64,000 bases of DNA from an uncultured Lachnospiraceae bacterium (GTDB lineage Bacteria; Bacillota; Clostridia; Lachnospirales; Lachnospiraceae): contig CANDGI010000013.1 in assembly GCA_947384285.1 (NCBI GenBank), positions 8,268-72,267 of the forward strand, given 5' to 3'. This document shows positions 2,531 through 61,747 of the stretch, in pieces. Position 1 is the stretch's first letter, and every line of letters begins with the position of its first letter. Both the position numbers and the translations under genes were made by a program. The notes under the pieces are model-generated. The model saw only the letters and a program-made list of their open reading frames with translations. It had not been told where the DNA came from and did no database searches.

Positions 2531-3658
2531 ATGAAAAAGGATATGAGATATTATGTGGAGATATCTGGACAGAGAATGGAAGAGAATCTGACACGGAGGA
2601 GAGAGCTTCTGGGGGAGCTTGCAGATTTATACCGGCAAAGCCAGCAGAAAGATATCTGTATCATTGCCTCAGGCTCATCGCTCAACGCAGCGATGGCGGC
2701 GGAAAGCTTTATGAGAAGTTATTGCGGCAGCAGGGTGCTGCTTATGAGCTCCACGGAGTATATGGATTACCGGAGGGAAGAAGCGAAAAGATATTTTTGC
2801 ATCACCATTTCCCAGAGTGGGTGCAGTACCAATACCATAGAAGCCGTAAAGTGCATGAAGGAAGATAAGATCCCGGCGATTGTGCTGACAGGAAATGTGC
2901 ATGCTGGCATGAAAGAGTATGCAGATTGCCTGATTGAGTACGGCGTAGGAAATGAGGCCGTTGATTATGTAACCTTAGGCTTTTCCACTTTGGTGGAATA
3001 TCTGATGCTGCTGGCCGTGGAGGCTGGAAAACAAAATGGGGCGCTGAGCCATGAGGAATGCCAGAGGCTTCTTGCTGAAATAAAGATAGGCTGCCAGGCA
3101 AACAGCCAGATGTACCAGAAGGCAGAGGAATTTACTAGAAAGCATTATCAGGAATTCTTAGAAATGAGCCAGGCGGTAATTGTAAGCGACGGGGCAGGCG
3201 TGGGAATTGCAAGGGAAGCAGCATTGAAGTTCCAGGAGACTTTGAAAATTCCTGCTTTGTACTATGAAAGCGAAGAGTACATCCATGGGCCAAATATGCA
3301 GCTTACCCCGGACTATGCTGTGTTCTTTATCGATACCAATGAAAAACATGGAAGGATGCAGGAAATCTTTGCAGCTACCGGGCTGGTAACGGAAAAAATT
3401 TATATGGTTACCAACAAAAAGGTGGAAGAGAATGAACGGGTGTGCGTCGTAGAGAACCAGGTGGGAAATGAAGTTACGCCGTTGTTTACCGGGGTGCTGT
3501 TCCAATACATTGCAGCCGTGGTAACAGAGGAAAAGAACGGGTTTTTGTGCCACCCATTGTTTGAAAAATTTGAAGAAAAAATTCACTGCAAGACAGAGGA
3601 TTATAAAGAAATCATAAAAGAAAAAGAGGAAATGGAAAGGAGGAAAGAGGATGCGTAA
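2531..3658 (+). CDS. SIS-domain sugar-amine phosphate deglycase (GlmS-like, glucoselysine-6-P deglycase type)
   Basis: ASGSSLNAA, ISQSGCS, EAALKFQET and EEYIHGP motifs; located in a mannose-family PTS operon. Confidence 0.8.
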   Translation: MKKDMRYYVEISGQRMEENLTRRRELLGELADLYRQSQQKDICIIASGSSLNAAMAAESFMRSYCGSRVLLMSSTEYMDYRREEAKRYFCITISQSGCSTNTIEAVKCMKEDKIPAIVLTGNVHAGMKEYADCLIEYGVGNEAVDYVTLGFSTLVEYLMLLAVEAGKQNGALSHEECQRLLAEIKIGCQANSQMYQKAEEFTRKHYQEFLEMSQAVIVSDGAGVGIAREAALKFQETLKIPALYYESEEYIHGPNMQLTPDYAVFFIDTNEKHGRMQEIFAATGLVTEKIYMVTNKKVEENERVCVVENQVGNEVTPLFTGVLFQYIAAVVTEEKNGFLCHPLFEKFEEKIHCKTEDYKEIIKEKEEMERRKEDA

Positions 3659-4082: not shown

Positions 4083-4550
4083 ATGATTCAAGCGACACGG
4101 GTGGACTATCGGCTTTTACATGGACAGGTGGCAGTTTCCTGGACGTCTGCACTTGGCGCGGACTGCCTTTTGCTGGTCAGCGATACGGTGAAAAATGACC
4201 CTCTGCGGATGAATGCGTTAAAGCTTGCGAAACCTGCCGGGGTAAAGGTGGTGATTAAAAATACCCAGGAGGCAGTAGAGGCCTTAAAGAGCGGGGTGAC
4301 AGATAAGTATAAACTGTTTATTATCTGCGAGGACCTTAAGACTGCCAAAGTGGTTATGGAAGCCACCGGGGAAAAGGATTTGAATATCGGCAATACGCCG
4401 TACCGGGAGGGAACCAAGCAGTATGGGAAAAGCGCCCATCTGCTTCCAGAGGAGGAGCAGATGGTACGGGAAATGATGGAAAGTGGAAAAAATCTTTTTA
4501 TCCAGATGGTTCCCGCAGAGAAAAAGATAAAATGTGAAGGGCTGTTTTAA
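4083..4550 (+). CDS. PTS mannose family IIB
   Basis: RVDYRLLHGQV motif. Confidence 0.93.
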   Translation: MIQATRVDYRLLHGQVAVSWTSALGADCLLLVSDTVKNDPLRMNALKLAKPAGVKVVIKNTQEAVEALKSGVTDKYKLFIICEDLKTAKVVMEATGEKDLNIGNTPYREGTKQYGKSAHLLPEEEQMVREMMESGKNLFIQMVPAEKKIKCEGLF

Positions 4551-4553
4551 CAC

Positions 4554-4646
4554 AGGAGGAAGGCTGATGCGAAGCATTATTCGAAATGCCTTCCGACGAT
4601 TTGCCGCCGGACCAAAAGGAAGGGGGCGTTTCATAAAAAAAGGAGG
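4554..4646 (+). repeat. Dispersed repeat family A, copy A1
   Basis: AGGAGGAAGGCTGATGCGAAGCATTATTCGAAATGCC...GGCGTTTCATAAAAAAAGGAGG; similar copies at 15843, 49499, 61657. Confidence 0.85.
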
Positions 4647-4655
4647 GAACACAGC

Positions 4656-5441
4656 ATGATAGTAAAAACAATACTTATTTTCCTGATTGGCCTGCTGGGT
4701 TATTCGGAATGGCTGACTGGAACCAGCTATCTGCAGCGTCCCATTGTGCTGGGACCGTTGGTGGGTCTGGTGCTTGGGGATATGCAGGCAGGGATAATCA
4801 TGGGCGCCACATTGGAGCTTGCAATGATTGGGGCAATTTCCGTAGGCGCATATAACCCGCCGGATTTGATTTCGGGAACGGTGCTTGGGGTGTCGCTGGC
4901 AATCCAGGCCGGGGCTGGGCCGGAAGCGGCATTGACCCTTGGCATTCCCATCGCCACAGTTATGTTAGCGGTAAATACAGGGCTTGGACAGCCGTTGATG
5001 CTTTTATTTATCCACAAATGTGACAGGGACGCAGAGGATGGCAATGTGAAGGCATTCACCCGGGATATGCTGATTGCGGGATATGTCCAGAATATCTGGG
5101 GGATTATCTGTATCCCCATTGCATTTTATTTCGGAGCCGATGCGGTAACCCGGGTGCTGGGCGTAATTCCAGAGTTTGTACAGACCGGCATGGATATTAC
5201 GGCAGCGCTGCTTCCGGCGCTGGGATTTGCAATGCTGGCGCAGACAATGATGAATAAAAAGGTTGCACCGTTTTTCTTTATCGGGTTCTTTATCGTTGCA
5301 TATCTGGGAGTAACCACCACAGGCGTGGCAATTTTCTCCATCTGCCTGGTGCTGATTATGGTTATGTTTGGGATTATCGGCCCTAAGCCTGGGGCAGTTA
5401 TAGAGGAAGAGGGTACAGGAGGTGATTTTGATGAGTTTTAG
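4656..5441 (+). CDS. PTS mannose family IIC
   Basis: RPIVLGPLVG, GATLEL and LPALGFAML motifs; hydrophobic. Confidence 0.93.
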   Translation: MIVKTILIFLIGLLGYSEWLTGTSYLQRPIVLGPLVGLVLGDMQAGIIMGATLELAMIGAISVGAYNPPDLISGTVLGVSLAIQAGAGPEAALTLGIPIATVMLAVNTGLGQPLMLLFIHKCDRDAEDGNVKAFTRDMLIAGYVQNIWGIICIPIAFYFGADAVTRVLGVIPEFVQTGMDITAALLPALGFAMLAQTMMNKKVAPFFFIGFFIVAYLGVTTTGVAIFSICLVLIMVMFGIIGPKPGAVIEEEGTGGDFDEF

Positions 5442-8265: not shown

Positions 8266-9027
8266 ATGAAGCTGTTAAATAAAGATGAATTTCTTGCCAA
8301 TGAATTGAAATTTTATTTTATGCAGGAAAATCTCAAAGAAGGGGACAAACTTCCTTCGGAACGGGAGCTTGCAGAAGAATATGGGGTGCAGCGTGTCACC
8401 GTGCGTTCTGCATACCAGATTTTGGAGGAAGAGGGAATTGTGGAAAACCGTACCAGAAGCGGCCATTACATGGGCCATGGGAGGATACGCACGGATTTGT
8501 GCCAGATACAGTCCTTCCGCGAGAAGGCAAAGAGCCTTGGGATGGATAGTGAGAATAAGCTCCTGGCTTTTGAGCTGGTAGAGGTCGATAAAGGACTGTC
8601 TAAGAAAATCAAACTGCCCATTGGGACTGTTTTAAATAAGATTACCAGGATCCGCAAGGTCAGGAGGGAGGAAGAGATGTTCCCGGTGGCCATTGAATAC
8701 GCCTATATACCCGAGGCCATGGCGGAGAAATTGATGAAATATGATTTGGAGGAGCGTTCCCTGTTCCAGATTTTATCCCAGGAATACGGCAGGGTTCCAA
8801 AGCGGGAGGAACAGGTGGTGGAGATTGTATATGCGGATGAATTCGAGGCAAGGACACTGCAGGTGGATCAGCGGACTACACTGGTTATGAAGGAAGGGAT
8901 TACTTACGATGATAAGGGCAATATCCTGCAGTTTCTGCATACAGTGATGAAGAAGGACTGGGTGGTTTTCGAGCAGGGGAACGACAGAATCCGCCAGAAA
9001 ATGGAAGAGGTGGCACATGGATTATAG
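8266..9027 (+). CDS. GntR (HutC/UTRA) transcriptional regulator
   Basis: LPSERELAEEYGVQRVTVR wHTH plus UTRA-like C-terminus. Confidence 0.9.
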   Translation: MKLLNKDEFLANELKFYFMQENLKEGDKLPSERELAEEYGVQRVTVRSAYQILEEEGIVENRTRSGHYMGHGRIRTDLCQIQSFREKAKSLGMDSENKLLAFELVEVDKGLSKKIKLPIGTVLNKITRIRKVRREEEMFPVAIEYAYIPEAMAEKLMKYDLEERSLFQILSQEYGRVPKREEQVVEIVYADEFEARTLQVDQRTTLVMKEGITYDDKGNILQFLHTVMKKDWVVFEQGNDRIRQKMEEVAHGL

Positions 9028-15303: not shown

Positions 15304-15395
15304 AGAACTGCCATGGAAAAGCAGATTTTTATTGCTGCTTTGCCAGAGTATGTTCAAACACGCGCGAATGAGAATGAAAGGGATGGGTGCTTATC

Positions 15396-15869
15396 ATGAA
15401 AAGATATGTGACAGGTATATTGCTGATGGCATGGATGGCAGTTATTTTTCTTTTTTCTGCCCAAAATGCAACGGAATCCTCTCAGACCAGCCAGTCCGTA
15501 TCCTACCGGATTGCCAAATGGCAGGACAGGCTGCTTGGGCAGGAAAAGACAGAGGAGGAACTGCTCATTCAGGCAGAGAAGATGCAGCTTGTCATCCGCA
15601 AAGGCGCCCATATGAGCGAGTATGCATTGCTGGCCATTCTTTTCCTGGCGCATTTGGGATGCTATTCATTCAGCAGGAGGAAAACGATCCTTCTGGCATT
15701 GGCGCTGTCTGTGTGTTATGCGGCTGCCGATGAATTCCATCAGCTGTTCGTGCCAGGCCGGGCTGGCAGGTTTGCAGATGTTTGTATTGACGGCATAGGG
15801 AGCCTGGCAGGAATATTTTTTTATTCCATAGTTGTTTTGTGCAGGAAGGATGATGCGAAGCATCATTAG
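15396..15869 (+). CDS. VanZ family membrane protein
   Basis: IRKGAHMSEY and DEFHQLFVPGR motifs. Confidence 0.9.
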   Translation: MKRYVTGILLMAWMAVIFLFSAQNATESSQTSQSVSYRIAKWQDRLLGQEKTEEELLIQAEKMQLVIRKGAHMSEYALLAILFLAHLGCYSFSRRKTILLALALSVCYAAADEFHQLFVPGRAGRFADVCIDGIGSLAGIFFYSIVVLCRKDDAKHH

Positions 15870-15931
15870 GAATGCCTTTTGGTGGTTTGCCGCTGGAGCG
15901 AAGGGAAGGGGCATTTCATGGAAAAAGGAGG
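15843..15931 (+). repeat. Dispersed repeat family A, copy A2 (overlaps vanZ stop)
   Basis: AGGAAGGATGATGCGAAGCATCATTAGGAATGCC...GGCATTTCATGGAAAAAGGAGG. Confidence 0.85.
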
Positions 15932-16164: not shown

Positions 16165-16216
16165 TAGTATATCATGCAGCTTATGAAGTATCATGAAGCA
16201 GGGAGGGAATCTTACA

Positions 16217-29579: not shown

Positions 29580-30569
29580 TCAGGTGGTTCCTCGTTCCAC
29601 AATGGAAACTGGCAGGACAATATGATCCGCCAAATGTGCGCTCTGGGCAAGCTGCTGGAAGAGAAGCTCTGTGGCGCGCCTGGCCATGGCAAATGGGTCC
29701 TGGCGTACCGAAGAGAGGGCAGGGTAGCATTGGCGGCATACAGAAGTATCATCAAAGCCAATTACTTTCACTTGTTCAGGAACCAAGAAACCATTTTGCT
29801 TGAGCGCCTGCAAGGCTCCGCTGGCACGCAGGTCGCTGGAAGCAAAAATTCCGTCGAACTCTATTTTCTTTTTGATGGCGTAGCACACAAGGTCCCGTGA
29901 CCGTTCGTATGGATGGTCCGGGCTTTCTATGTTAAGAACTAATTCTGGAAGGACGGGAAGCTGGTATTCCTTTAATGCGTCCTGATATCCCCTTTTGCGG
30001 GAGGAGATTACAGAAGCGTGCTGGCTTCTGCCGATAAACAGGATTTTTTTGCATCCCTTCTGGATTAAGAGCTCTGTTGCCATGCAGCCCCCGATATAAT
30101 TGTCCGATTCCAGGCAGAGGAATCTGCCGGAAGCCTTAGGAATCCGGTCAATGAACAGTACCGGAAATGGTGCGGATGCCGCCAGGGATACCAGTTCTTC
30201 AGAACCTAAAAAGGAGATAATAGCGGATACCTTTAACTCCGTCAGCCCTTCAAAGCAGAAACGTTCCCGGGAGGGAATTTCATCGGTGCTGCTGATATAA
30301 CAGTGGAAATTCTGGGTGTATAACTCCTGCTCCAGGCAGCGGACGGTCTCGGCAAACCATTCGTTGGTTAGATTGGGAACCAGGATGCCGATTTTTGGCA
30401 GGGCTTGGTTTTTGACGGAGTAATTCAATTCTTTTGCAATATCCATGACCCGGTTTTGGGTTTCTTTGGAATAACCTCCCTGATGGTTTAGGACACGGGA
30501 TACGGTGGCGGTGGAATAGCCGCTCTTTTGGGCGATATCTTTGATGGAAATGTCTTTTCTAGGTTTCAA
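29580..30569 (-). CDS. LacI family regulator
   Basis: SIKDIAQKSGYSTATVSRVL; probable TTG start after AAAGGAG. Confidence 0.9.
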   Translation of the reverse strand: MKPRKDISIKDIAQKSGYSTATVSRVLNHQGGYSKETQNRVMDIAKELNYSVKNQALPKIGILVPNLTNEWFAETVRCLEQELYTQNFHCYISSTDEIPSRERFCFEGLTELKVSAIISFLGSEELVSLAASAPFPVLFIDRIPKASGRFLCLESDNYIGGCMATELLIQKGCKKILFIGRSQHASVISSRKRGYQDALKEYQLPVLPELVLNIESPDHPYERSRDLVCYAIKKKIEFDGIFASSDLRASGALQALKQNGFLVPEQVKVIGFDDTSVCRQCYPALSSVRQDPFAMARRATELLFQQLAQSAHLADHIVLPVSIVERGTT

Positions 30570-33394: not shown

Positions 33395-33457
33395 CGAAGG
33401 CTTTCGCCAATGCGATGATTCCAGGCGCAGCGGCATGGCATTTCATGAATAAAGGAG
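33395..33457 (+). repeat. Family A, degenerate copy A5
   Basis: CGAAG..AATGC...GGCATTTCATGAATAAAGGAG directly before the kinase ATG. Confidence 0.55.
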
Positions 33458-37048: not shown

Positions 37049-37078
37049 AGGAGGAAGGGGCATTTCATAAAAAGGAGG
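37049..37078 (+). repeat. Family A, 3' fragment A6
   Basis: GGAAGGGGCATTTCATAAAAAGGAGG provides the SD for ATG 37089. Confidence 0.65.
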
Positions 37079-48609: not shown

Positions 48610-49500
48610 ATGGGCAGCGCCAGGATAGAAATTAAGGATTTATCCAAAAATTATGGAAAAAAACAGGCCTTAAACCATGTAAGCCTGGAAATTGAACAAG
48701 GAATGTTCGGGTTATTGGGGCCCAATGGAGCGGGAAAAACCACATTGATGAAAGTATTGACGACCCTGACAAAAAAGAGCAGCGGCCAAGTAAGCTTGTG
48801 CGGAATTCCTGTGGAGCAATGCAATGAGATACGCCGAATGACCGGCTATCTCCCCCAGGATTTTTCCATGTATGGGAATATGGGGGCGTATGAGGCTTTG
48901 GATTATCTAGCGGTATTATCCGGCATGGATAAGAAAAAGCGGGTCGAAAAGGTGCCCGAAATGCTTGAAAAAGTAAATCTGGGCGACCAGCACAAGACAA
49001 AGGTAAGGGCTATGTCCGGCGGCATGAGACGCCGCCTTGGAATCGCCCAGGCAATCATCCATGACCCCAGGATTATTGTGGTGGACGAACCCACTGCCGG
49101 GCTGGATCCAGAGGAACGGGTAAGGTTCCGAAACCTGCTCTGTGAAATCGCCAAAGACAGGATTGTAATTCTGTCTACTCACATTGTAGGGGATATTGAG
49201 GCAACCTGTGAAAATATTGCTGTGCTAAGCCAGGGGGAAATTCTGTTTCGGGGAACCGTATCCCAATTGCTGGAATCTGTGCGGGGAAAGGCCTATACCA
49301 TGGAAGTGTCTGCCATGGAGCTTCCCATGGTGAAGGAGCAGTTTCTGGTAACCGGAATCCTTACCAATGGAAGTACGGCTAATATCAAGATTATTGCAGA
49401 TGAGCCGCCGGTGAAAGGGGCAAAACCAGCGAGACCGGACGTGGAAGACGCCTATATGTACCTGATGAGCCATGCTTCTGCCTTCCCATGCAGGGAATAG
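48610..49500 (+). CDS. ABC-2 type exporter ATP-binding protein
   Basis: GPNGAGKTT, MSGGMRRR and DEPTAGLDP motifs. Confidence 0.95.
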   Translation: MGSARIEIKDLSKNYGKKQALNHVSLEIEQGMFGLLGPNGAGKTTLMKVLTTLTKKSSGQVSLCGIPVEQCNEIRRMTGYLPQDFSMYGNMGAYEALDYLAVLSGMDKKKRVEKVPEMLEKVNLGDQHKTKVRAMSGGMRRRLGIAQAIIHDPRIIVVDEPTAGLDPEERVRFRNLLCEIAKDRIVILSTHIVGDIEATCENIAVLSQGEILFRGTVSQLLESVRGKAYTMEVSAMELPMVKEQFLVTGILTNGSTANIKIIADEPPVKGAKPARPDVEDAYMYLMSHASAFPCRE

Positions 49501-49580
49501 GAGGAAGACCGATGCGAAACATTATTCGAAATGCCTGCCGGCGGAACGAAGTGGAGGGGGCATTTCATTGAAAAAGGAGG
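49499..49580 (+). repeat. Family A, copy A3 (internal deletion of about 11 bp)
   Basis: AGGAGGAAGACCGATGCGAAACATTATTCGAAATGCC...GGCATTTCATTGAAAAAGGAGG. Confidence 0.85.
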
Positions 49581-49587
49581 CGCCAGT

Positions 49588-50832
49588 ATGTTTGGTACGT
49601 TATTTTTGAAAGAATGCAGACAGGTGTTAAGAAGCATGGTTTACTATTTGTACGTGGTAATCTTTGTGATGTTTCTTTCCAGCCAGATGGGGGAAGTGGT
49701 CACTGCAGATCTGGATCGGCCAAAGCCGGGGCAGGAAAGCTATGGTTCCACTAGCAGCCACGAGGAGGGCGCGGTGATGGAAAAAATATTGGCGGGCCTT
49801 GTGATGGAAACATACCACAATTCTTATGCCACTTATCCCATGGGCTTTTACCGGGGCGTCACATTGAATGAAAGGGAACTGGCAGAGATGGCGTCTATCA
49901 TTGAGGAATGCACAGGAAAAAGCTGGGATGAGATACTTGAAAATATGGAAAACCATTTTGCAAAGTCAGACCAGACCACCATGGAGGGAGCTTTGCGGGC
50001 CCAGATATCATATTCTGTTGTCCCGAAAGCTTCCCTTAGCTATGAAGAATTCTGTGAAAATATGGAAAAGGCCTGTGAAATCATAGGGGCTGGAAGCTCT
50101 TATACACAGAAGCATCTGGATGCAGGCGTAGGGGTTCCCATGACTTATGAGCAGGCGGTGGAGGAATTTGAAACTCTTTGCGGAAAAGACAGGATTACAG
50201 GGGCTGTGGTAAGGCTGTTTTGTGACTATGCCGGAATTATTCTTTCCATTCTTCCTATTTTTCTGGGCGTGACACGCTGCCTTCGGGATAAACGAGCCAA
50301 GGTAAGCCAGGCAGTGTTTTCCCGCAGCACTTCGGCATTCCAGATTATCGCAAGCCGTTACCTGGCCAATGTGTGCATGGCATTCCTCCCGGTGGCAATT
50401 ACCATATTTGTGGTGCAGATGCCCTATCAGTATCATGCAAGAACCATAGGGATCACGCCGGATGCACTGGCATTTTTGAAGTACAGCCTTGTGTGGCTGC
50501 TGCCGGAGATTATGATAGTGCTTGCAGTATCGTTTTTTATCACAGAACTTACAGAAAATGTAATTTCTATTTTTATCCAGGTTTTCTGGGCAATTGGCAG
50601 TGTGTTTGGCGCAGCGGGCCTGCAAGGGGATTTTGGATTCCACTTGATTGCCCGGTGGAATGCATTGGGGAATACCAGCGCGTTTTGGAGCCAGCGGCAG
50701 GAGCTGTTTTGGAACCGAGGGTTTTATTTCGCCCTGGCGGTTCTGTTTCTAGGTTTGACCGTTGGGTTTTATGAGAAAAAGCGCAGGGAAGGAGAGACTG
50801 TTTATGGAAAGATATTTAAGCGCAGGAAGTAG
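49588..50832 (+). CDS. ABC transporter permease
   Basis: N-terminal TM, large loop, multi-TM C-terminus; follows the ATPase. Confidence 0.85.
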   Translation: MFGTLFLKECRQVLRSMVYYLYVVIFVMFLSSQMGEVVTADLDRPKPGQESYGSTSSHEEGAVMEKILAGLVMETYHNSYATYPMGFYRGVTLNERELAEMASIIEECTGKSWDEILENMENHFAKSDQTTMEGALRAQISYSVVPKASLSYEEFCENMEKACEIIGAGSSYTQKHLDAGVGVPMTYEQAVEEFETLCGKDRITGAVVRLFCDYAGIILSILPIFLGVTRCLRDKRAKVSQAVFSRSTSAFQIIASRYLANVCMAFLPVAITIFVVQMPYQYHARTIGITPDALAFLKYSLVWLLPEIMIVLAVSFFITELTENVISIFIQVFWAIGSVFGAAGLQGDFGFHLIARWNALGNTSAFWSQRQELFWNRGFYFALAVLFLGLTVGFYEKKRREGETVYGKIFKRRK

Positions 50833-58807: not shown

Positions 58808-58892
58808 GCAAGGAAACACTTATCGACGAATGCCTCTTTTTGTGCTATGATAATGGATGTATTACCATAGACAACAGAAAGGGGCATTTTTG

Positions 58893-61670
58893 ATGGACGA
58901 ATCATCAGATGATAAGTCAATAAAATATATTACTGCAGGCCTTTTAGCCCATGTGGATGCAGGAAAAACAACCTTATCGGAGGCTCTGCTGTATACTGGC
59001 GGCAGCATCCGCAAGCTGGGACGGGTGGACAACGGGGATGCCTTTTTGGATACCTGCCAATTAGAACGGGCCAGGGGCATTACCATATTTTCCAAACAGG
59101 CGCTGCTGCAGGCCGAAGATATGGTGGTTACGCTTTTGGATACCCCGGGCCATGTGGATTTTTCAGCGGAAATGGAGCGCACCCTGCAGGTTCTTGACTA
59201 TGGAATCCTGGTAATCAGCGGAGCGGACGGCCTGCAGGGCCACACCCGTACCCTGTGGCGGCTGCTGGAAAAATATCAGATTCCGGTATTTCTTTTTGTC
59301 AACAAAATGGATCAGCCAGGAACAGATAAAGAAGCGCTGATGGGACAGCTGCGTGCAGGGCTAGATGGGAACTGCCTGGATTTTACCCAGGCAGATACGG
59401 AAGAATTTTATGAAAATGCAGCCATGTGCGAGGAGGAAGCGCTGGAATATTTTCTGGAGCATGGCAGCCTTAAGAAAGAACAGATTCAGGGAATGATTGC
59501 CAGGAGAAAGCTTTTTCCATGTTTTTTTGGTTCCGCCTTGAAGCTGGCAGGCATCCTGGAATTCCTGGAAGGCTTTGGAACCTATGCCTGTCCCAAGGAA
59601 TATCCCGGGGAATTTGGCGCAAAGGTATTTAAGATAACCAGGGACAGCCAGGGGAACCGCCTTACCTGGCTGAAAATTACCGGGGGAAGCTTGAAAGTAA
59701 AGACAGCGCTTACGGTAAACTCCCCATCATGCCTGGCCAGCCGTCCGGCGGACTCCATGGATGTCCCTGCTATGGAAGCCGGAGGCTTTCATGGTAAACA
59801 GGAAAAAGTAAACCAGATACGCATTTATTCTGGGGAGAAATATGGGATGGTGGATGAAGCAGTTCCCGGGATGGTTTGTGCGGTGACAGGATTGAGCGAT
59901 ACCAGGCCGGGAACCGGGCTTGGAAGGGAGCAGCATGCCATGCCGCCGCTTTTAACGCCGGTGCTGACCTATCGGCTGGATGTCCCAGAAACCTGCGATA
60001 CCGCTGTTATGCTGTCAAACCTGTACCAATTGGAGGAGGAGGAGCCGGAGCTTCATATTGTCTGGGATCAGCAGCTTAAGGAAATACAGGTGCAGATTAT
60101 GGGGGAGGTACAGCTTGAAATCATAAAGAGCCTGATTGCAGAGCGGTTTGGGGTGGAGGTAACCTTTGGGGCAGGAAATATTTTGTACAAAGAAACCATC
60201 GCCCATCCGGTGGAGGGCGCGGGCCATTATGAGCCCCTGCGCCATTATGCAGAGGTGCATCTTTTGCTGGAGCCGGGAGAGCCGGGAAGCGGGCTTGTCT
60301 TTGACACCTGCTGCAGTGAGGATGTGCTGGACAAGAACTGGCAGAGATTGGTATTGACCCATCTGGAGGAAAAAATGCACCGGGGCGTACTGACGGGTTC
60401 TGAGATTACAGATATGAAAATTACGCTGGCTGCAGGCCGCGCCCATCAAAAGCACACAGAGGGAGGGGATTTCCGGCAGGCCACCTACCGGGCGCTGCGG
60501 CAAGGACTGATGGAAGCGGAATCCATCTTGCTGGAGCCATATTATAATTTCCGGCTGGAAGTGCCGGAGTCCATGATCGGCCGGGCGATGACAGATATTG
60601 ACAGGATGCATGGAACCGCAGAACCGCCCCAGATACAAGGGGAGATGGCAGTATTTACCGGCAGCGCCCCGGTGGCAGCTATGGGGGATTACCAGAGGGA
60701 AGTGATTTCTTATACCAGAGGAAATGGAAGGCTTTCCTGCAGCCTGAAAGGATATGAGCCTTGCCATAATTCCAAAGAGGTTATAGAAAAGACAGCTTAT
60801 GACCCGGAGCGTGACCTGGAGAACTCCCCGGATTCTGTATTTTGTGCCCATGGAGCTGGTTTTTTGGTGAAATGGGATGAAGCAAAATCCCATATGCATG
60901 TGGAACTCCCGGATTTTCTGCGGAAAAAAATCCAGGGCAGCATTCCGGTAATGGAAAGGGAGAACCTCAAGGAACAGGCAGGGCGGCAGAAGGATTTGAA
61001 CGAGGAGGCCTGGATCGGGGAAGAGGAAGTGAACGCCATACTCTCCCATACCCTGGATGCCAATAGAAGGGAAAAGCAGCCCGGGAAAAAGGGATTTCAT
61101 AAGAAAAAAAGCGTATCCGCCCAGAGAGCCGCTCCTGTGACCCGCACCTACCAGAGCCAGGAGCCCAAAGAAGAATATATGCTGGTGGATGGCTACAATG
61201 TGATTTTTTCCTGGGAGGATTTGAAGGAGCTGGCGGAAGCAAACATTGACGGGGCAAGGGGAAGGCTCCTTGATATCCTTTCCAACTATCAAGGAGTCCG
61301 CAGATGCAATATGATTGCAGTGTTTGATGCCTACCGGGTGCAGCAGCATAAAACGGAAATCCTGGATTACCATAACATCCTTGTAGTGTTTACCAAGGAG
61401 GCAGAGACTGCGGATCAATATATTGAAAAGTTTGCCCATGAAAATGCCCGGAAATACCGGGTGACCGTGGTAACCTCCGATGGCTTGGAGCAGATTATTA
61501 TCCGGGGCCAGGGCTGCGGGCTGATTTCTGCCAGGGAGTTCCAGGAGGAAATCAAATCATCTATGGAGACAGCCCGGCAGGAATATGAAGGAAAGCAGGA
61601 AAAGAGCAGGAATTATCTCAAGGATGCCATTCCAGAGGAATTTAAGAAAAGGATAAAGGAGGAAGGCTAA
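58893..61670 (+). CDS. TetM/EF-G-like translational GTPase fused to a C-terminal NYN (YacP/Rae1) ribonuclease domain
   Basis: AHVDAGKTT, RGITI, DTPGH, NKMD; C-terminal VDGYN, VFDAY, TADQYIE, VTSD. Confidence 0.9.
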   Translation: MDESSDDKSIKYITAGLLAHVDAGKTTLSEALLYTGGSIRKLGRVDNGDAFLDTCQLERARGITIFSKQALLQAEDMVVTLLDTPGHVDFSAEMERTLQVLDYGILVISGADGLQGHTRTLWRLLEKYQIPVFLFVNKMDQPGTDKEALMGQLRAGLDGNCLDFTQADTEEFYENAAMCEEEALEYFLEHGSLKKEQIQGMIARRKLFPCFFGSALKLAGILEFLEGFGTYACPKEYPGEFGAKVFKITRDSQGNRLTWLKITGGSLKVKTALTVNSPSCLASRPADSMDVPAMEAGGFHGKQEKVNQIRIYSGEKYGMVDEAVPGMVCAVTGLSDTRPGTGLGREQHAMPPLLTPVLTYRLDVPETCDTAVMLSNLYQLEEEEPELHIVWDQQLKEIQVQIMGEVQLEIIKSLIAERFGVEVTFGAGNILYKETIAHPVEGAGHYEPLRHYAEVHLLLEPGEPGSGLVFDTCCSEDVLDKNWQRLVLTHLEEKMHRGVLTGSEITDMKITLAAGRAHQKHTEGGDFRQATYRALRQGLMEAESILLEPYYNFRLEVPESMIGRAMTDIDRMHGTAEPPQIQGEMAVFTGSAPVAAMGDYQREVISYTRGNGRLSCSLKGYEPCHNSKEVIEKTAYDPERDLENSPDSVFCAHGAGFLVKWDEAKSHMHVELPDFLRKKIQGSIPVMERENLKEQAGRQKDLNEEAWIGEEEVNAILSHTLDANRREKQPGKKGFHKKKSVSAQRAAPVTRTYQSQEPKEEYMLVDGYNVIFSWEDLKELAEANIDGARGRLLDILSNYQGVRRCNMIAVFDAYRVQQHKTEILDYHNILVVFTKEAETADQYIEKFAHENARKYRVTVVTSDGLEQIIIRGQGCGLISAREFQEEIKSSMETARQEYEGKQEKSRNYLKDAIPEEFKKRIKEEG
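59714..59799 (-). repeat. Family B repeat copy inside the GTPase coding sequence
   Basis: Reverse complement GTTTACCATGAAAGCCTCCGGCTTCCATAGCAGGGACATCCATGGAGTCCGCCGGACGG.. matches the copies at 34439 and 42701. Confidence 0.8.
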
Positions 61671-61747
61671 TGCGAAGCATTATTAAAATGCCTTCTGACG
61701 ACTTGCCGCCGGAGTGAAGCAAAGGGGCATTTCACTGAAAAAGGAGG
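61657..61747 (+). repeat. Family A, copy A4
   Basis: AGGAGGAAGGCTAATGCGAAGCATTATTAAAATGCC...GGCATTTCACTGAAAAAGGAGG. Confidence 0.85.

Follow-up and report, generated by a model that had tools for sequence, protein, structure and literature searches.

GA-cis elements of a gut Lachnospiraceae genome are probably mobile repeats that insert at Shine-Dalgarno sequences

Among the described repeats of bacterial genomes, REPs are usually located 3′ of genes and occur in both orientations, and the BOX repeats of Streptococcus pneumoniae, built of boxA, boxB and boxC, are not known to be bound to Shine-Dalgarno (SD) sites or to a single orientation. IS900, a member of the IS110 family, targets the stretch between ribosome-binding site and start codon and does so in a single orientation. 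The support that PMC8141618 provides for the insertion site of the IS900 relatives is indirect only. The REP2 (CREN) repeats of Neisseria and the IR-A/IR-B repeats of Borrelia are dispersed units which contain two internal stem-loops and a ribosome-binding site, and which lack terminal inverted repeats (Delihas 2011, PMC3184786).

The element described here belongs to the Rfam family GA-cis (RF02987), whose P1, P2 and P3 fold it shares. The original description reportedly treats GA-cis as a likely cis-regulator, and the "cis" in the name is said to refer to the location directly 5′ of protein-coding genes, adjoining the SD sequence. The family is typed in Rfam as "Gene; sRNA". It comes from a survey of 224 motifs, the main text of which does not discuss it (PMC5737381), and it is one of the families whose structure gained one covarying pair in Rfam 15 (PMC11701678). 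The window, meaning the whole 64-kb stretch of DNA that was analysed, covers positions 8268–72267 of contig C13 of a 3.23-Mb draft genome with 83% completeness. The Rfam 15 scan of this window places GA-cis at 4551–4637, 15837–15922 and 61654–61738, in matches spanning all 88 model positions. The first-pass annotation had left room for a new family, which this result takes away: because three window copies exceed the GA-cis gathering score of 34.7 bits, the family is already catalogued. What is known is best read as the family itself, a candidate structured RNA, and what is new as the members reported here together with their interpretation as mobile repeats homing to SD sites. No description of SD-targeting repeats in Lachnospiraceae was found in the open-access literature.

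GA-cis resembles REP2 and the Borrelia IR repeats in lying directly 5′ of unrelated genes and in carrying a ribosome-binding site. However, those repeats also carry a promoter and the ATG, whereas the GA-cis copy at 4554 has no promoter-like site and the start codon of the downstream gene lies 4–11 nt outside the repeat; about half of the GA-cis copies are intra-operonic, and there is no sequence similarity between the families. Like BOX, GA-cis is a modular, hairpin-rich and transcribed intergenic repeat with a variable number of tandem modules, an uncertain route of mobilisation and an amplification that took the form of an old burst, but again the sequences are not similar. With IS900 and its IS110 relatives, the element shares site- and orientation-specific insertion at translation-initiation regions. 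IS900 and its relatives, in contrast, are autonomous, measure about 1.4 kb and encode a DEDD transposase, a gene that the studied genome lacks, and no similarity between their ends and GA-cis was found. The likeness to the REP/REPIN-RAYT systems and to the palindromes derived from IS200/IS605 concerns the hairpin-based, strand-specific organisation and the lack of terminal inverted repeats and of a classical target duplication; the difference is that Y1/RAYT genes do not co-occur with GA-cis.

The reading preferred here, to which a probability of roughly 80% is assigned, is that GA-cis is a non-autonomous, orientation-specific mobile repeat inserting at SD sequences, and not a gene-specific switch. 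According to this proposal, a unit of about 88 nt would land on or beside the AGGAGG of a gene, in the sense strand, giving the order AGGAGG, two-domain structured core, A-rich AGGAGG, original spacer and start codon. In this way, the gene behind it would still have a ribosome-binding site at the correct spacing. Insertion would be tolerated, even between packed or overlapping cistrons, because the unit restores a spaced, A-rich SD. In two of the three frames, the element would also give a stop codon to an upstream ORF which formerly ran through the SD. Within one genus of gut Lachnospiraceae, different lineages would each have amplified the family on their own, with head-to-tail arrays sharing one AGGAGG and with decay proceeding through internal deletion. 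The fold would be kept because the mobilising machinery recognises the sense strand, either as single-stranded DNA or as RNA, while an effect on the mRNA is possible and would be secondary. The competing proposal closest to regulation is a cis-regulatory RNA, riboswitch-like or a protein-binding leader, which gates the SD and whose regulon was spread by duplication; this is regarded as quite unlikely, for reasons that accompany the individual results below.

The members found in the window are collected in Table 1. The four near-copies noticed from the letters at 4554, 15843 (more exactly 15842), 49499 and 61657 are real, both on direct reading of the window and in the profile search (nhmmer, 87–105 bits). 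Of the two partial copies, the one at 37049 stands as a remnant, and the one at 33395 gave no match in either the nhmmer or the covariance-model search.

Table 1. GA-cis copies and copy-like sequences of the window (window coordinates).
Feature	Position	Strand	Evidence
Full GA-cis copy	4554..4647	+	Rfam RF02987 61.1 bits; nhmmer 105 bits
Full copy, 5′ AGGAGG degraded to CAGGAAGG	15842..15931	+	Rfam 37.9 bits; nhmmer 99 bits
Doubtful, highly decayed copy before ROK kinase gene (ATG 33465)	33395..33457	+	3′-end resemblance
Internally deleted remnant	37049..37078	+	nhmmer model positions 70–107, E=0.014
Copy with 11-nt deletion	49499..49580	+	nhmmer 86.6 bits; no Rfam-model match
Full copy at GTPase-hemB junction	61657..61747	+	Rfam 57.0 bits; nhmmer 100 bits

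The copy at 4554 occupies the entire spacer between the PTS IIB (4083–4550) and IIC (4656–5441) genes. Its 5′ AGGAGG is located at 4554–4559 and its 3′ AGGAGG at 4641–4646, 9 nt 5′ of the ATG at 4656. The inverted repeat search pairs its P1 strands, GGAAGGC (4558–4564) and GCCTTCC (4588–4594), and the tip of its mini-hairpin is GCGAAGC. In this single copy, which was looked at for such signals, neither a promoter-like site nor an internal terminator was found. The copy at 61657 is similarly framed by AGGAGG at 61657–61662 and 61742–61747, the latter 10 nt 5′ of the hemB ATG (61758). The copy at 49499 lies between the stop codon of an ABC ATPase gene, whose TAG overlaps the 5′ AGGAGG (49499–49504), and the ATG of an ABC-2 permease gene at 49588, with the 3′ AGGAGG at 49575–49580. 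The deletion in this copy takes out the 3′ strand of P1, and for this reason it falls below the Rfam threshold. The remnant at 37049 consists of a 5′ AGGAGGAAGG fused straight to a 3′ GGCATTTCATAAAAAGGAGG, an arrangement that fits loss of the stretch from one internal GGAAGG repeat of the element to the other; it provides the SD 10 nt 5′ of an ABC ATPase gene (Pfam ABC_tran, ATG 37089). At 33395, only GGCATTTCATGAATAAAGGAG resembles the 3′ end of the element (18/21 match).

The terminal AGGAG(G) had been placed 7–10 nt 5′ of the next ATG in five of the six cases, and this spacing was reproduced for the starts at 4656, 33465, 37089, 49588 and 61758. The exception is the copy at 15842, which follows the VanZ gene: its 3′ AGGAGG (15926–15931) adjoins no gene start, and the next gene, encoding an MCP, begins only at 16193, about 250 nt away. 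A copy which precedes no gene is not expected of a regulator gating an SD. Pfam assignments of the flanking genes (PTS IIB/IIC of the sorbose family, ROK kinase, ABC ATPases, ABC-2 permease and ALAD/hemB) agree with the gene calls made from the letters.

The history of the copies is most directly visible at orthologous junctions. All three junctions that were compared (IIB-IIC, GTPase-hemB and ABC ATPase-permease) are empty in sister species and contain a single AGGAGG between stop and start, the arrangement anticipated in the first-pass annotation. At the IIB-IIC junction, the sister genome G061 reads TAACACAG-AAGGAGGAAC-ATGGAATG, i.e., TAA-CACAG-AAGGAGGAAC-ATGG-AATG, where the studied genome contains 94 nt framed by two AGGAGG. 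The GTPase-hemB junction of G061 reads TTGAGGAGGAAAAGTGAAGATG, also represented as ...CAGTTGAGGAGGAAAAGTGAAGATG, and it is empty in nine of nine sister species in which both flanking anchors could be aligned (G061 and eight others). In at least 10 sister species, the ABC junction is empty and has the form TAGGAGGTGGAAGCATG or TAGGGGGTG..ATG, also represented as GAATAGGAGGTGGAAGCATG or GAATAGGGGGTG...ATG, in which stop codon and single SD overlap. Since the ABC junction is filled only in the studied genome, the copy there is a derived insertion and not the product of a loss elsewhere. Judged from these alignments, the three window junctions are insertions in the lineage of the studied genome. 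Such absence from three of three junctions speaks against a regulator belonging to the genes concerned.

The insertions also touch the upstream genes, whose stop codons come from the GGC-TAA/TGA-TGC of the element: at 61668–61670 for the GTPase ORF (58857–61670), where the TAA overlaps the internal ATG of the element, and at 15867–15869 for the VanZ ORF (15387–15869). In G061, the GTPase ORF passes through the single SD and overlaps hemB. The insertion would thus have rewritten the C-terminal residues of the upstream protein. Filled sites have AGGAGG on both sides, both flanks look native, and left and right AGGAGG vary without co-variation. With a boundary inside AGGAGG, a target duplication and an SD borne by the element are indistinguishable. 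A 12-nt direct repeat (AACACAG..) around the copy at 4554 was considered as a target duplication and rejected, as both of its halves are present at the empty site of G061. Polymorphism in the population was looked for in Logan DNA contigs from four metagenome runs; the assembly breaks or becomes tangled at the element, and no joint of an empty allele was seen.

The genome-wide searches extend the pattern well beyond the window. The nhmmer profile built from the four window copies yields 48 matches at E<=1e-5, and the covariance model yields 39, 29 of them above the gathering score; these numbers are far above chance and agree with the earlier expectation of many copies genome-wide. Placement was analysed on a rough gene map drawn from open reading frames (2,975 ORFs, 90% coding). 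The orientation follows the next gene in 46 of the 48 copies (binomial p=8e-12 against 0.5, with tandem copies not being independent), and both neighbours are on the same strand for 42/48 copies, compared with 73% for all genes. Around half of the copies abut or overlap the stop codon of the upstream gene. The 3′ AGGAGG (GGAGG) is located 4–11 nt 5′ of the start of a long ORF in 23 of the 24 full copies that were parsed; nine further copies were skipped by the parser, and inspection by eye shows a nearby start codon after the 3′ GGAGG in seven of them. The 3′ AGGAGG thus stands at SD distance from start codons. By local GC skew, 38/48 copies are co-directional, versus 76% of all genes, so the copies show no more replication-strand bias than the genes do, and copies at head-on genes keep the direction of the gene. 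The orientation is set by the gene, not by the replication fork.

The genes served in this way have no common theme. Downstream of the copies are genes for GerA, an anti-sigma-type kinase, phosphoglucomutase (PGM), DapA, polyphosphate kinase (Ppk), SpoVAD, a GT2 transferase, HisS, MalQ, a response regulator, Ddl, ThiW, MscS, MgtE, MutS, an MFS transporter and a GH32 hydrolase. The 30 flanking genes with an annotation have no relation to one another, essential housekeeping genes are among them, and the lack of a shared function, noted at first for the window flanks, holds for the genome-wide neighbours as well (Pfam). The regulatory proposal can point to the location of the copies in mRNA, adjoining the SD; a set of targets without a theme, with essential housekeeping genes among them, is difficult to reconcile with it. 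Copy number, orientation, SD spacing, empty sites and unrelated genes are all as predicted by the mobile-element interpretation of the first-pass annotation, which they support.

An argument in favour of a regulator comes from the structure. In an alignment of 39 copies from 15 genomes, 86.6% of cells pair in the Rfam-type fold, 13 of 19 pairs show changes on both sides, and none of 500 shuffles scores as high. The consensus fold consists of P1, which encloses a hairpin with a CGAAG loop, followed by a second hairpin. P1, GGAAGGC/GCCTTCC in its common form, covaries to GGAACGC/GCGTTCC, GGAAAGC/GCTTTCC, GGGAAGT/ACTTCCC and GCCGC/GCGGC, and includes the final two G of the 5′ AGGAGG. The many G-U pairs show that only the sense strand folds. 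A conserved, covarying and sense-strand-specific fold with invariant unpaired bases (CCGACGA) would also suit a role in the mRNA. The same proposal could draw on an alternative pairing, since inverted-repeat analysis indicates two possible partners for GCCUUCC, the 5′ GGAAGGC and the 3′ GGAAGG.

The stem originally described, GAAATGCC/GGCATTTC with tolerated G-U substitutions, competes with P1 and P3. It can form, as 86% of cells pair and one pair is U-A in 21 copies and U-G in 16, which also counts on the side of a switch. It is not the conserved fold: as the main structure it was rejected with two covarying pairs, 289 of 500 shuffles scoring as high, and a low pair probability. The predicted mean pair probability is 0.13 for this stem in the studied genome and 0.00 in other species, compared with 0.52 for P1 and 0.57 for P3, and the stem predominates only in copies with a damaged P1, such as that at 49499. 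An alternative stem with so low a predicted probability weakens the regulatory proposal. A hidden 5′ SD with a free 3′ SD was likewise examined and rejected, the accessibilities that ViennaRNA predicts for the two not differing significantly (0.55 vs 0.61, p=0.21), which is not what a structure gating one of them would give.

The tip of the first hairpin is GCGAAGC, replaced by GCGGAGC or GCGTAGC in the variants of G028 and G032, so that GCG..AGC is kept. Loci L056–L171 were left out of the tip counts, as they had been fetched with a pattern containing GCGAAGC and are biased in this respect. The GCGNAGC motif is known as an extraordinarily stable DNA mini-hairpin (PMC13037366). The tip may thus hint, and no more than hint, that the fold is relevant as single-stranded DNA.

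Another proposal is a small peptide encoded by the element, serving as a leader or upstream ORF. It would start from the 5′ AGGAGG, followed after 7 nt by an ATG opening MRSIIRNAFRRFAAG..., and most copies do carry this strong SD-ATG, with one consensus frame open across the element. The predicted products, however, range from 1 to 40 aa, the frame shifts among copies, and all three mod 3 classes occur among the distances that separate the ATG and the 3′ landmark. In C35:17830, L027 and L046, the ATG is changed to ACG with a compensating change of CAT to CGT, which keeps the hairpin, and the variants of G028 and G032 as well as the Rfam consensus have no ATG at this position. Because the frame is not kept, a conserved small protein is rejected, and the coding proposal as a whole appears extremely improbable.

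The distribution of the family is narrow and uneven. Of 36 species sampled from one genus, 22 carry GA-cis, the copy number ranging from 0 to >24; one genome from each of 24 further families of the order was searched, and none gave a match. The carriers are Lachnospiraceae isolates and MAGs from the gut of mouse, rat and rabbit, and many copies are located at contig ends. Such variation, from 0 to >24 copies inside one genus, is hard to expect of a regulator. In the low-copy genomes, the possibility of a founder gene was considered and dropped, because the downstream genes differ among these genomes; the regulatory proposal would require the same genes rather than differing ones.

Relatives contain a second subfamily with another 3′ hairpin (TGGCAGGTGACGCGAAGCGGCGCGTGCCGATACC), head-to-tail arrays with a period of 83–88 nt in which one AGGAGG is shared, and arrays of half-units. 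In the studied genome, three 59-nt 3′ halves form an array at C19:1317–1500 and two 45-nt 5′ halves at C25:29590–29676, and a full tandem pair precedes the Ddl gene at C10:18327–18497. In this last case, the internal ATG of the second unit is in frame with Ddl, so that an ORF of 378 aa would compete with that of 351 aa. The existence of half-units and tandem arrays is a further point against the regulator. In comparison with the Rfam entry ("Gene; sRNA"), the empty sites, arrays, subfamilies and unrelated genes indicate a mobile repeat.

For all 24 full copies of the studied genome, the nearest neighbour in sequence is another copy of the same genome. The mean pairwise identity among these copies is 76% and the maximum is 91%; identity to the consensus reaches 92% with a mean of 85%. 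These values point to an old, lineage-specific burst as the probable source of the copies. Present-day activity of the family is not implied, as copies of at most 91% pairwise identity are old. Two insertions, judged by shared location, predate speciation: the copy at the MFS gene, common to the studied genome and to G061 (which has three tandem units there), and the copy at the ABC-ATPase gene, common to G013, G026 and G008. Retention at such orthologous sites favours the regulator, which may hold for individual long-retained copies and does not explain the family.

If GA-cis is a mobile repeat, an enzyme should move it. One candidate explanation is a MITE-like derivative of an HUH/Y1 element (IS200/IS605, RAYT) or of an IS110-type IS, mobilised in trans; this is rather unlikely. 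On this explanation, a cut 3′ of AGGAGG in the sense strand would account for the missing inverted repeats, the orientation and the arrays. Indeed, either half of the element contains a hairpin, there are no terminal inverted repeats but only internal stems, and the two ends of the consensus (AGGAGGAAGGC... and ...GAAAAAGGAGG) repeat each other directly rather than in inverted form. The hairpin tip fits the GCGNAGC mini-hairpin of DNA, with N varying between A, G and T (PMC13037366), and arrays sharing AGGAGG are expected if insertion occurs 3′ of a target equal to the end of the element itself.

The gene content does not follow this explanation. No RAYT, IS200/IS605 or IS110 partner, as suggested earlier, was found. 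The search for the Y1 transposase (PF01797) in the studied genome returned only a 22-bit fragment. G005, G007, G012 and G071, with 9–21 copies, lack Y1, and copy-free genomes have it in abundance, a test limited by the draft state of the assemblies; Y1 thus does not track GA-cis across the genus. The IS110 DEDD transposase (PF01548) has no match in the studied genome or in six GA-cis-rich genomes (G006, G007, G011, G012, G016 and G030), while IS110 abounds in G026, G031 and G061, where GA-cis is scarce, so that it is anti-correlated with the element. No sequence similarity to GA-cis is seen in 26 IS loci, including, by nhmmer, 20 IS110 loci. A composite of 5′ half, gene and 3′ half was found neither in the genome itself nor in 116 related loci (0.86 Mb). 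That the orientation is dictated by the gene rather than by the replication strand also counts against the MITE-like explanation.

Returning to the SD-inserting mobile repeat, its mechanism of reading the SD on the sense strand could be of a new type. The suggestion, a tentative and rather doubtful one, is a recombinase, HUH-like or guided by RNA, that works in trans and has by now disappeared from most genomes, or else an RNA-mediated route; some copies would then have been co-opted as structured insulators between cistrons, uncoupling the translation of neighbouring genes. The matter has practical sides. A family of about 50 copies per genome calls for caution in annotating its members as regulators or sRNA genes, and the mobility of GA-cis would account for contig breaks in Lachnospiraceae assemblies. 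The element would illustrate how selfish DNA can live inside operons when it brings along stop codons and a substitute for the ribosome-binding site. The identity of the enzyme that places DNA at AGGAGG in a single orientation is a testable question, and such an enzyme is a potential tool for site-specific insertion. If a new mechanism of the suggested kind is at work, GA-cis would be the founding example of a class of "SD-homing" elements in gut Firmicutes.

Several minor observations accompany these results. G026, G031, G061 and G067, the larger genomes of the genus, with few or no GA-cis copies, contain up to 34 IS110 matches and up to 15 IS200/IS605 matches, many of which have identical scores that suggest recently duplicated copies. 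On contig C60 of G036 (L005 361–550), a cobalamin riboswitch (RF00174, 111.6 bits) is located about 1 kb 5′ of a GA-cis copy, which is probably a coincidence. A weak CRISPR-DR21 match on the minus strand of the window, at 30248–30284, is most likely due to chance (27.9 bits, with the gathering score at 48; E=0.98). Contig C13 itself (77.6 kb) carries copies at 3467/3527, 6991, 12814, 24108, 45315, 57761 and 69919, all on one strand, which amounts to 6–7 independent loci where about one is expected from some 42 loci in 3.23 Mb; local hopping, or a preference for this region, may lie behind the clustering.
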